A DNA stretch of 64,000 nucleotides, taken from IMG/VR virus record IMGVR_UViG_2861084961_000001. One strand, given 5' to 3'. This DNA comes from a virus (Duplodnaviria > Heunggongvirae > Uroviricota > Caudoviricetes). The translations under genes and the position numbers were made by a program. The notes beneath the pieces are model-generated. The model saw only the letters and a program-made list of their open reading frames with translations, ran no database searches and had not been told where the DNA came from. Positions 46,068 to 48,190 of this stretch are shown here, one piece after another; within the stretch, counting starts at the first letter, position 1; each line of letters starts with the position of its first letter.

Positions 46068-46375
46068 ACATTCTCGCGCTTCTTGAGGCTGGCGATTGGT
46101 CAGAACATTGCACTAAAACGGAGTTAGGCGGTCGGCTTGAAAGAGAGATTACACAACTTATTGGTGATGCCCAAAATGATTTGTCACCTGAGCATCTCCC
46201 CTGCGATGTAGTCCTTGTGCCAGGGATGAGGATACACGAAGGCGTCAGAACGAAAACATTATTAACCGCATTACAGAGAAGAGCCGAACTAAGCTCGCGG
46301 ATAAAGTTGATGCCATCCAAAATATTTGATGTCGTCAAATTTACGCCATCGCAACATACTGAGAGAGATAAATGA
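46052..46375 (+). CDS. hypothetical protein (107 aa)
   Basis: ORF track. Confidence 0.35.
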   Translation: MDDILNILALLEAGDWSEHCTKTELGGRLEREITQLIGDAQNDLSPEHLPCDVVLVPGMRIHEGVRTKTLLTALQRRAELSSRIKLMPSKIFDVVKFTPSQHTERDK

Positions 46376-46998
46376 GCACGGTAGCGAAAGATCTCACAGA
46401 AGATATTCTCAATGAAATTATTGTTGGTGCAAATACCTCGCTTGAGCAACTTCTTGCGTTAGCACTGAGAGCCGAACGTCGAGACAGAAATCGTTTTTAT
46501 GAGCGATTACCTGGGAAACGACCAGATAGATCAGATGAAGAAGGTTGCGATATAGACTACATGGAGCCTTCAGAGATTTATCAACTTGGTAAAGATGACG
46601 GCTGGAACGCTTATCACGATGCTGTGATGAAGTTGGATGAAAAAGTTAAACCTCTTTCTCGAACGGTAGATCACGGTTTCCGCGATAACTGCGAATGCTC
46701 TAGTTGCCAGACCACGGCCCGTATTTGTTCCGAATTGACAGATAAATCCAGCCTAATCTACGAAGTTAATGTAGGCGGTAATACATGGGTCGAATGCACA
46801 AGAGCTGCATACGTAAGAGCAAAAGACAAGGGTGAATTAACCAGAGTTGTTGCCCATCACCCAAATAATGAGCTTAAAGATCACCAAATTCGAGAACTGG
46901 TGAACGAGTTGAGGGATATTGCGGTTCAGTACCACGGAACGCAGCAATTGCGGGAGAAGATTGCCAGAGCAGTGAACAACTCAGTCCGTAAAAAATAA
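46372..46998 (+). CDS. hypothetical protein (208 aa)
   Basis: ORF track; followed by hairpin AGGCCCCAT...ATGGGGCCT at 47006-47030. Confidence 0.45.
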   Translation: MSTVAKDLTEDILNEIIVGANTSLEQLLALALRAERRDRNRFYERLPGKRPDRSDEEGCDIDYMEPSEIYQLGKDDGWNAYHDAVMKLDEKVKPLSRTVDHGFRDNCECSSCQTTARICSELTDKSSLIYEVNVGGNTWVECTRAAYVRAKDKGELTRVVAHHPNNELKDHQIRELVNELRDIAVQYHGTQQLREKIARAVNNSVRKK

Positions 46999-47440
46999 GC
47001 AATAGTACGATAAAGAGGCCCCATGCTCTTGATGGGGCCTGTAGCAACTAGCGTTATGGACGCTGGTTTACGTACTCAATGATCGCTTTGATAATCGCGA
47101 ACATCGGCGGCACGATTTTGAACAGTAAGTTAACCATAACAGGCCTCACTTAGTTTTATCGCGCCTAGCTGCAAATACCTTTGGGCTTGCCTTTGCAGTT
47201 GCAATATCTGTAGTCGCCAGATACTTACGGCACGATTTCGAGTTAAGGTAAGGTTTTAGAGTCACCAAAAACCTGGACTTAAATCTTCTTTGAGAACAAC
47301 GATGTTTAGTAAATGGTCATTATTACCTGGTATGACCACTCAACGTTTCTTGATGAATCCAGTACATTCGGTTAATCTTAATTCAGTCGCCAGATACTTA
47401 TGGCTCAGGAACAGAGCCGCAAACTCTGTTTCCTTTTAAA

Positions 47441-47469
47441 AAGCCCAGCCTAGTCAACTGGGCTTTTTA
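47441..47469 (+). terminator. rho-independent terminator AAGCCCAG-loop-CTGGGCTT plus T5, preceded by a second hairpin at about 47408-47433
   Basis: Stem-loops with T-run inside a 760-bp non-coding stretch. Confidence 0.5.
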
Positions 47470-47763
47470 ATGTCTATTTTTAACCCAATGAACCTTCAAT
47501 ACCGCAACATCAGTGTCTTGCGAATTAAGATAGTGTGTATAGGTTATACATGCAAGTGCATAACTCTGTGGATAACTCAGGAAGGAAAAAGTAGCTTCCG
47601 CGCAATTTAGGCCAGACAAGGCTTTCGCAAAAATCAACGGAGAGAAAAAAATTTGTTAAAAATAACGTTTGTTGGAATTGTATATATTTATGCCTTTCAA
47701 TAGTTAGCATCTTATTAACATCTTTTTTAAGAGATAGAGTTCAAAAATATATAGCTTCAACAT

Positions 47764-47783
47764 ATACTGTATGCATATACAGT
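47764..47783. promoter_or_regulatory. LexA (SOS) box TACTGTATGCATATACAGTA
   Basis: Perfect CTGT-N8-ACAG palindrome about 17 bp upstream of the umuD-like start. Confidence 0.7.
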
Positions 47784-47800
47784 ATTAAGAGGCGAGTATT

Positions 47801-48190
47801 ATGGGCTTCCCTTCTCCTGCGGCGGATTATGCTGAGAGCCGTATTTCTCTTGATCAGCAGATAATTAGACATCCTTCAGCGACCTACTTCTTGAGGGCAG
47901 CTGATAGCCATCATCGTGAGGGAATATTGCAGGGTGCATTGCTGGTGGTCGATTCCTCACTCACTCCTGTTGATGGATCTCTTCTTGTATGTGCTCTGGA
48001 TGGGGAATATCGCGTAAAAAGATACCGGAAGTATCCACGTCAGCATCTGGAGGATTTAAGAACTGGTAAGAAGGAAGCATTGCCAAAGGATGATGATGGA
48101 TGCACGGGCAGCAATGCCGTGTTTGGTGTGATCACTCACATTATCAACGACGCAAGAAGTGGCGAGTTTGATGATTGTCCTGTGATGTAG
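47801..48190 (+). CDS. umuD: UmuD-prime-like protein (S24 peptidase fold, begins at the position matching the UmuD cleavage product)
   Basis: MGFPSPAADYAESRISLDQQIIRHPSATYFLRA...DGEYRVKRY matches the recalled UmuD core from residue 25 onward. Confidence 0.65.
   Translation: MGFPSPAADYAESRISLDQQIIRHPSATYFLRAADSHHREGILQGALLVVDSSLTPVDGSLLVCALDGEYRVKRYRKYPRQHLEDLRTGKKEALPKDDDGCTGSNAVFGVITHIINDARSGEFDDCPVM

Follow-up and report, generated by a model that had tools for sequence, protein, structure and literature searches.

The gap between a hypothetical gene (46372-46998, plus strand) and humD (47801-48190, plus strand) in the virus record IMGVR_UViG_2861084961_000001 of IMG/VR, analysed here as one stretch of 64,000 nucleotides (nt; hereafter the window), is predicted to consist of two parts: a candidate type I toxin-antitoxin module at 47006-47468 and, at 47551-47800, a leader of humD resembling those of phages P1 and P7. 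The source of the window is an SSU5/pLF82-like phage-plasmid. We estimate at about 85% the probability that the segment 47006-47468 is an unannotated type I toxin-antitoxin module with the dinQ/agrB layout. It appears to comprise a minus-strand gene for a small hydrophobic peptide with a long structured leader and a divergent plus-strand gene for a small RNA (sRNA) complementary to that leader at its 5' end; these two predicted genes, the RNA structures and the co-evolving complementarity all emerge from the in silico comparison of related loci. None of the records of the window's relatives that were opened contains a feature in the gap, and AP024133.2 is the sole plasmid among all search matches that lists a "hypothetical protein" there. 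A search of the whole window against Rfam at gathering thresholds and a transfer RNA scan gave no matches.

A direct repeat with predicted antisense pairing

The putative module is built around a 20-nt direct repeat, AGTCGCCAGATACTTA(C/T)GGC, with copy 1 at 47212-47231 and copy 2 at 47385-47404 (19 of 20 positions identical). A preliminary description of the region, made from the sequence alone, was right about the existence of this repeat but put the copies about 176 bp apart; the distance is 173 bp from start to start. The 64-kb window contains these two copies and no others, and 100 shuffles contain none; when the region was subjected to 300 dinucleotide shuffles, the longest repeat, with one mismatch allowed, averaged 11.7 nt and never exceeded 16 nt. 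The 20-nt repeat is far beyond chance.

Copy 1 is located in the predicted minus-strand leader and copy 2 forms the 5' end of the predicted plus-strand sRNA; with the copies thus read divergently, the first 20-24 nt of the sRNA are predicted to be antisense to the toxin leader. The two copies change together across eight lineages (e.g., GUCGCCAGAUACUUA in the window, GUCGCCGGUUAACAAC in Klebsiella and GCUGGCAGACACAUAC in Kosakonia). When the sRNA-leader duplex is examined across the alignment, 95.8% of the cells are paired and 12 of the 24 pairs have changed on both sides (0 of 500 shuffles), compared to about 30-37% paired in slid controls. The differences between the copies are directional: 18 are C>T or A>G, which are compatible with G·U pairing, one goes in the opposite direction and four are transversions; within the core positions 2-20, the G·U-compatible and opposite differences number 9 and 0, respectively. 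This compatibility exists only between a minus-strand transcript of copy 1 and a plus-strand transcript of copy 2. The predicted energies of the cognate duplexes range from -38 to -49 kcal/mol across the lineages, and that of the window sRNA is -38.5 kcal/mol versus a mean of -17.2 (standard deviation 2.7) for shuffled sequences. The cognate pairs of Klebsiella and Kosakonia reach -48 to -49 kcal/mol each; the sRNAs of these two lineages on the leaders of the other lineages yield about -20 to -38 kcal/mol, and the reciprocal combinations, with other lineages' sRNAs on the Klebsiella and Kosakonia leaders, about -19 to -38 kcal/mol.

The putative antitoxin RNA gene

A position weight matrix (PWM) scan identifies a promoter of the sRNA at 47350-47378 on the plus strand, with a -35 box TTGATG (47350-47355), a 17-nt spacer and a -10 box TAATCT (47373-47378). 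It is the best plus-strand sigma-70 site in all eight lineages (TTGAAG or TTGATG, 17 nt, TAAGCT or TAATCT), and in each of them the -10 box ends exactly 6 nt before copy 2; because of this conserved position, the sRNA start is placed at copy 2. The putative antitoxin sRNA (47385-47468, plus strand), delineated by its promoter and by covariation, is 84 nt long and consists of the 5' antisense segment (47385-47404), the stem-loop SL1 (47408-47433) with the loop CCGCAAA, and a terminator (47438-47468); in all lineages, the length is 84-86 nt. The two consecutive stem-loops ending in a T-run of the preliminary description are indeed seen at 47408-47433 and 47438-47468, with a fold of -31.2 kcal/mol (z = -5.0). 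In the stems, 93.7% of the cells are paired versus 83.9% in shuffles, and 12 of the 21 pairs have changed on both sides versus 5.7 expected (0 of 500 shuffles); the slid controls collapse. The G·U pairs of these stems are valid only on the plus strand, being A·C on the other one. Thus, among the options that had been listed for the region, a small RNA is the one that gained support, in the form of a predicted 84-nt sRNA gene with a positionally invariant promoter, covarying stems and an end at about 47468. A noncoding RNA gene that has its own promoter and terminator and is complementary to the toxin mRNA is one of the features by which type I systems are recognized, and the predicted sRNA gene displays it.

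Two other candidates in this segment were rejected. A plus-strand open reading frame (ORF) of 45 residues (47302-47439) spans the sRNA promoter and the 5' half of the sRNA, in a segment that is variable and rich in insertions and deletions between lineages. A second, AgrA-like sRNA starting from copy 1 was also considered, but copy 1 is not followed by a stem-loop and a terminator, and the covariance model matches the repeat alone, with 20 bits.

The candidate toxin gene and its structured leader

The region had been described as containing no credible ORF. On the contrary, a minus-strand ORF of 27 codons plus stop (47137 to 47054, encoding MVNLLFKIVPPMFAIIKAIIEYVNQRP) is retained in every relative with its start codon, Shine-Dalgarno sequence and stop codon, and is intact in 10 of 10 lineages, where the peptide is 25-28 residues long. 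The substitutions are mostly at the third codon position, and the ratio of nonsynonymous to synonymous substitution rates (dN/dS) is far below 1, about 0.05-0.3 (e.g., 0.035/0.51 in the comparison with pECOH89). Judging by these patterns of conservation, the candidate toxin ORF is best considered a real coding sequence that evolves under purifying selection, i.e., a small hydrophobic peptide, well within the limit of about 60 residues, that has translation signals of its own and evolves as a protein, as in type I toxins. The peptides are of two paralogous types, MV.LL.KI.PP... and M.LL.LKLAHP... Four relatives (loci L005, L006, L021 and L022) encompass both paralogous ORFs in tandem on one leader, each with its own Shine-Dalgarno sequence; the window has the distal type only. 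An exhaustive search of 1.8 billion representative proteins with the 31-residue form of the peptide yields two clusters, both labelled "hypothetical protein". A plus-strand ORF antisense to the toxin (47079-47153) was discarded, being interrupted or devoid of a start codon in relatives.

The Shine-Dalgarno sequence GUGAGG (47144-47149, minus strand) lies 6 nt upstream of the AUG, and a similar GAGG or AAGG precedes each toxin ORF in the relatives. Downstream of the ORF, a terminator scan detects a Rho-independent terminator of the toxin mRNA (47006-47040, minus strand), with a stem-loop at 47016-47040 followed by CUCUUUAU; in the alignment of relatives, a GC-rich hairpin with a U-run, differing in sequence, occupies the same position. 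On the upstream side, the PWM scan suggests a weak candidate promoter at 47283-47313 on the minus strand, with the -35 box TTTACT (47313-47308), a 19-nt spacer and the -10 box GAAGAT (47288-47283); a promoter-like site (PWM scores 4-10) is found just upstream of the first leader stem-loop in every lineage. No LexA box was found at the toxin promoter, the nearest one being that of humD (47765-47784).

The RNAalifold consensus of the minus-strand leader across lineages reveals several conserved elements. The 5' stem-loop SL-A (47251-47274) has a covarying stem (AGGUUUU/AAAACCU, GGGG/CCCC and GACAC/GUGUC in different lineages) and the loop UUGGUGA, which is unchanged in nine lineages. The 3' end of 16S ribosomal RNA (rRNA) carries the sequence AUCACC. 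The UUGGUGA loop is complementary to this sequence, and it may serve as a ribosome standby site. According to the duplex and fold analyses, the predicted sRNA target site (47204-47236, minus strand) consists of copy 1, with the complementarity reaching about 47235, and of AUCGUGCC at 47229-47236; copy 1 folds as a hairpin (47204-47224), the loop of which, GCGACUA, faces the 5' end of the sRNA. The same AUCGUGCC (47229-47236) is the 5' arm of a long-range leader helix with the 3' arm GGCGCGAU at 47158-47165. Between these arms lies the hairpin H1 (47169-47198, CUGCAAA...UUUGCAG), in which a C-G pair is replaced by U-A in Kosakonia, a compensatory change that gives CUGUAAA/UUUACAG. The G·U pairs of the leader structure, including H1, hold for the minus strand alone, as the other strand would have A·C in their place. 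A scan with the leader-hairpin pattern yields no matches among viral contigs, two chance matches among genome contigs and nine among metagenome contigs, of which L016 alone is real.

The CGGCACGATTT modules that had also been pointed out are present, at 47108-47121 and 47228-47241 (13 of 14 positions identical), but a repeat this large arises in 6% of shuffles and is not significant by itself. The copy at 47229-47236 coincides with the conserved 5' arm of the long-range leader helix. When the full-length window sequence is folded, the copy within the ORF (47109-47116) can displace 47229-47236 as the partner of 47158-47165, enclosing the Shine-Dalgarno sequence and the AUG. This alternative helix beats shuffles only in the window sequence and in the Enterobacter/Klebsiella lineage, so that the alternative pairing may be either a lineage-specific switch or a chance occurrence.

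Comparison with known type I systems

The architecture of dinQ/agrB and of its plasmid counterpart dqlB/agrB on pOXA-48 has been validated experimentally (PMC3567139, PMC5066626, PMC12365149), and the latter has been shown to be a post-segregational killing module (PMC12365149). The similarity between the putative module of the window and dinQ/agrB of E. coli K-12 extends to many details: the toxin ORF has the same length, 27 codons, and points away from the sRNA gene; both sRNAs are about 82-84 nt long and are organized alike, with an antisense segment at the 5' end followed by a single stem-loop and the terminator; the antisense pairing stems from a direct DNA repeat that is transcribed in opposite directions in divergent genes; and the target is located in a long structured 5' untranslated region (UTR), away from the ribosome-binding site. 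The differences are that the window has one sRNA gene rather than two (agrA and agrB), that the toxin promoter lacks a LexA box, that the antisense region is 20-24 nt compared to about 31 nt, and that the module resides on plasmids and phage-plasmids. With the dqlB/agrB modules of pOXA-48 and of IncL/M, IncI1, IncX and other plasmids, it shares the organization of a plasmid cassette, often near rep genes, in a gap that in pOXA-48 was likewise unannotated before the study of PMC12365149, as well as a trans-acting sRNA that pairs with the toxin 5' UTR; furthermore, the loop of the sRNA terminator, CCUCACCAG, resembles CUAAUCAG or CCUCAUCAG of dqlB/agrB. In contrast, DqlB has 31-32 residues (MINLLIIVLRAV...) and is similar to the window peptide only in the M-[IV]-N-L-L N-terminus, without profile similarity, and the leader sequences are unrelated.

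The protein models of DinQ and DqlB (NF041472 and NF041473) do not match the peptide at E-values up to 10, with the DinQ control scoring 54 bits, and hhalign comparison of the peptide with DinQ/DqlB gives a probability of 1.9%, i.e., no detectable homology. An nhmmer search finds no similarity between the leader and the dinQ/dql leaders, so that the 5'-UTR similarity used to assign loci to this family (PMC5066626) is missing. With a profile of the whole module searched against five dinQ/dql loci, nhmmer reports weak matches to the 3' half of the sRNA only (E-values 0.05-0.5).

The trans-acting type I systems zorO/orzO, tisB/istR-1 and shoB/ohsC of E. coli also combine a small hydrophobic peptide toxin with a divergent sRNA; about 18-23 nt of the sRNA are complementary to the long 5' UTR of the toxin, at a site well upstream of the Shine-Dalgarno sequence, and control is exerted via the folding of the leader or via a ribosome standby site (PMC5397157, PMC4147584). 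Unlike these toxins, the window peptide has no toxin family match, the SOS box of tisB has no counterpart at the window toxin, and in some of the relatives a single leader precedes two paralogous toxin ORFs in tandem. OrzO-P (RF02083, threshold 60 bits) has no match in the window, and the sRNA of the Enterobacter relative scores 34.2 bits with this model. In hok/sok and par(Fst), the presumed role in plasmid maintenance and the combination of an unstable antisense RNA with a stable toxin mRNA would be the common denominator with the window module. In par of pAD1, the complementarity arises from direct repeats that are transcribed convergently. Unlike in hok/sok, the window sRNA does not overlap its target in cis, there is no mok-like leader ORF and the toxin is half the size of Hok (about 50 residues); no Pfam match to Hok and no Rfam match to sok is found in the window.

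Several observations weigh against the type I interpretation with the dinQ/agrB layout. A consensus promoter scan of the minus strand finds no toxin promoter, and the candidate from the PWM scan is weak, poorly conserved in sequence and, in the window, requires a 19-nt spacer. Searches of Pfam, NCBIfam and PHROGs with the peptides detect no family match, with the DinQ control being recognised. The best Rfam match of the window sRNA is AgrB (RF02891), over the full length (47390-47471, 27.6 bits, E-value 0.025), which speaks for the interpretation, but this is below the gathering score of 40 bits, six other lineages have no match, and true dql loci score 57-63 bits. In the reverse direction, the covariance model of the sRNA built here matches genuine plasmid agrB genes at 24-27 bits, and a bare terminator scores 30 bits with the same model; therefore, these scores do no more than hint at a common origin with AgrB. 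The shuffle statistics given above overstate independence, the lineages being related to each other. Finally, one metagenome contig (L016, OLHG01029296.1, reverse complement) contains the toxin ORF, the leader and copy 1 but no sRNA half.

Given that there is no detectable similarity to DinQ/Dql in the toxin or the leader and that the AgrB match is below the threshold, we assign the module to a new family that has the architecture of dinQ/agrB; through the sRNA, it may be a very distant relative of DinQ/AgrB, yet it is not a member of that family. That this is a genuinely new family of type I toxins, as opposed to a diverged DinQ/Dql, moving as a cassette between phage-plasmids and conjugative plasmids, is a tentative suggestion to which we would give somewhat less than even odds. 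Should it be a new family, the control of a leader with two paralogous toxin ORFs by one sRNA, seen in several lineages, is not described for the known E. coli systems; the invariant UUGGUGA loop in the capacity of a ribosome standby site could be a novel feature; and the sRNA/target code would have diversified into non-cross-reacting specificities that could define exclusion or incompatibility groups.

Proposed mechanism and alternative explanations

Under the type I interpretation, the weak promoter near 47283-47313 would drive a minus-strand toxin mRNA of about 270 nt that ends at the terminator at 47016-47040; its structured leader of approximately 140 nt would include copy 1, and its 3' part would encode the 27-residue hydrophobic peptide. 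The strong divergent promoter at 47350-47378 would produce the 84-nt sRNA, the first 20-24 nt of which are copy 2. The 5' end of the sRNA would anneal to the part of the toxin leader that precedes the start codon by 65-90 nt, with the pairing probably beginning at the loop of the target hairpin. By analogy with dinQ/agrB, zorO/orzO and tisB/istR-1, the duplex might be cleaved by RNase III, or might cause refolding or occlusion of the leader or blocking of the standby site, such that the peptide is not made. Upon plasmid loss, again by analogy, the unstable sRNA would decay first and the stable mRNA would be translated, and the membrane peptide would then kill or arrest the cell, i.e., cause post-segregational killing. 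That the two genes are transcribed and the peptide is toxic, which of the RNAs is the more stable and how repression works are what we infer here from the characterized systems.

Given that the in silico evidence concerns the RNAs and the ORF rather than toxicity, that the peptide matches no toxin family and that L016 retains the ORF without the sRNA gene, one could instead envisage an sRNA-regulated small membrane protein that is neither a toxin nor an addiction factor but has a physiological or phage role, e.g., as a membrane modulator or an exclusion factor. This explanation appears unlikely in view of the point-for-point type I architecture, with a peptide of 25-28 residues and a weak toxin promoter opposed to a strong sRNA promoter (PMC12365149), the long structured leader combined with a trans-acting sRNA that has a 5' antisense region, as in proven systems, and the shifts of the module between plasmid backbones, often beside rep genes, which are typical of stability cassettes. 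A different class of explanations dispenses with the RNAs altogether: the repeats could be protein-binding DNA sites (iterons, operators or a partition site) and the hairpins ordinary terminators. The location of the region near repA or repB in some relatives would fit, and co-changing direct repeats are also what one would expect of two sites for the same protein, but iterons come as at least three repeats next to a rep gene and the window has two copies 173 bp apart with no adjacent rep gene. Moreover, the two copies remain 152-179 bp apart in relatives, binding to DNA does not predict the directional differences (18 that are G·U-compatible versus 1), copy 2 always starts 6 nt after the -10 box, and copy 1 is part of a conserved RNA structure, all of which makes this possibility highly improbable.

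The preliminary description also suggested that the repeats could be a recombination site used in the acquisition of the apbC (mrp)-metG block. The proximity of the region to the block, and the fact that duplicated short sequences can flank insertions, are compatible with a scar or an attachment-type site at the block boundary; however, the copies do not flank humD and the block but are located together on one side of them, inside a self-contained module. The plasmid pHNAH968 retains the whole region, with 95% identity, without apbC at that position, and the repeat pair is found in the Citrobacter, Enterobacter, Klebsiella and Kosakonia plasmids and in a viral metagenome contig that have the module with no adjacent humD-apbC-metG. 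Thus, in the alignment to relatives that lack the block, which had been proposed as a way to check this idea, the repeats persist and do not mark an insertion boundary, and the probability of a scar is negligible. As the element is a phage-plasmid with P1-like genes, and as the small structured RNA is found close to short repeats, one may also think of the immunity RNAs of the P1 c4, P4 CI or N15 CA type, which would control antirepressor or lytic genes via their own transcript. We consider this a very remote alternative: the repeats are direct, so that a single transcript containing both would not pair with itself, the wobble pattern requires transcripts from opposite strands, there is no Rfam C4 match, the next feature downstream is the humD leader rather than an icd/ant-type gene, and the module is also found on conjugative plasmids.

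Distribution and genomic context

The window stretch is 99% identical to Escherichia phage Cyrano, an SSU5-like phage-plasmid (PMC9928086), and 92-99% identical to approximately 100 E. coli plasmids that are 100-135 kb in size, pECOH89 among them; Cyrano and the plasmid pLF82 are 108,379 bp each. The module is found in approximately 100 plasmids of PLSDB, and the 1-kb stretch that contains it in 113 of 5,426 complete E. coli genomes. Beyond these close relatives, blastn matches with 68-83% identity to the 300 bp at the centre come from further elements: phage-plasmid-like replicons of Citrobacter and Enterobacter, a 261-kb IncFIB plasmid of Klebsiella, a MOBF conjugative plasmid of Kosakonia and two metagenome contigs. 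In these relatives, the matching stretch is always located in an unannotated gap of 0.8-1.5 kb and the neighbouring genes differ; where both copies of the repeat are present, they are 152-179 bp apart; the alignment shows three conserved blocks that correspond to the minus-strand ORF, the toxin leader and the plus-strand sRNA gene. This distribution points to a module that is portable between unrelated backbones.

SSU5/pLF82/pECOH89-like phage-plasmids are common in E. coli. The study of Cyrano names the KacT, RelE and HicAB toxin-antitoxin systems and makes no mention of the module described here (PMC9928086). The presence of a stability cassette where nearly all of the inspected annotations show nothing would help to explain the persistence of these phage-plasmids, beside the known type II systems, and would add a toxin family that is missed by the current protein and RNA libraries; annotation pipelines could catch the sRNA with the covariance model built here. 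The module would also be a clean example of how a direct repeat combined with divergent transcription builds a trans-antisense pair. Strategies for plasmid curing and anti-plasmid strategies would need to take such modules into consideration, as in the case of dqlB/agrB of pOXA-48.

In L016, the homology ends at the -35 box of the sRNA promoter and unrelated coding sequence follows; either the assembly is chimeric, or the toxin exists there with no antitoxin. In the Citrobacter, Enterobacter and Kosakonia plasmids and the viral contig, the module is followed by a conserved noncoding block of approximately 250 bp (...GAGTATTCTAGTA...AGAGTTGATTTT...AAATTGAGGTTG...ATGTCAATAAT...GAAAAAAAAT...; L004 4290-4580, L005 4340-4600, L022 3560-3800 and, on the minus strand, L033 2230-2030) that is missing from the window and has no Rfam match in these relatives. 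L033 further contains a perfect LexA box, TACTGTATATGCATACAGTA (1680-1700), about 550 bp beyond the module and next to genes for DinI-like and LexA-like proteins; the location of the module beside an SOS-regulated gene both there and in the window may be a coincidence. Downstream of humD, the window carries the phage-plasmid's own copies of apbC and metG. In pHNAH968 (L027), a DUF4145 gene (2195-2431) takes the place of apbC of the window and most relatives; therefore, the host-derived apbC-metG block is variable among these phage-plasmids.

The humD leader

The right-hand part of the gap, 47551-47802, is a separate, ordinary regulatory region, a P1/P7-like humD leader (47551-47803, plus strand) with DnaA boxes, a promoter, a LexA box, a Shine-Dalgarno sequence and the ATG at 47801. 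The segment 47551-47802 is 82% identical to a segment of P7 (91683-91917) and 77% identical to the counterpart in P1 (at about 86.4 kb). The humD promoter is at 47740-47768, and a perfect LexA box, TACTGTATGCATATACAGTA (47765-47784), overlaps its -10 box; therefore, humD is presumably controlled by the SOS response, as in P1. The remaining option of the preliminary description, that the region is just promoter and terminator structure, thus applies to its right-hand third, with the humD promoter and the LexA box, but not to the remainder.

Two adjacent DnaA-box-like sites are located at 47555-47563 (AGTGCATAA) and 47567-47575 (a perfect TGTGGATAA), and the P1 counterpart is annotated with "two predicted DnaA boxes". 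A short palindrome, TGTATAGGTTATACA (47534-47548), lies between the sRNA terminator and these boxes. Phage P7 has a second, degenerate copy of the humD leader (L003, 4180-4235), which includes half of a LexA box and AAGAGGCGAGTATTAT. This copy, just upstream of an IS903 and approximately 2.5 kb ahead of the genuine LexA box with humD, resembles what a rearrangement would leave behind.

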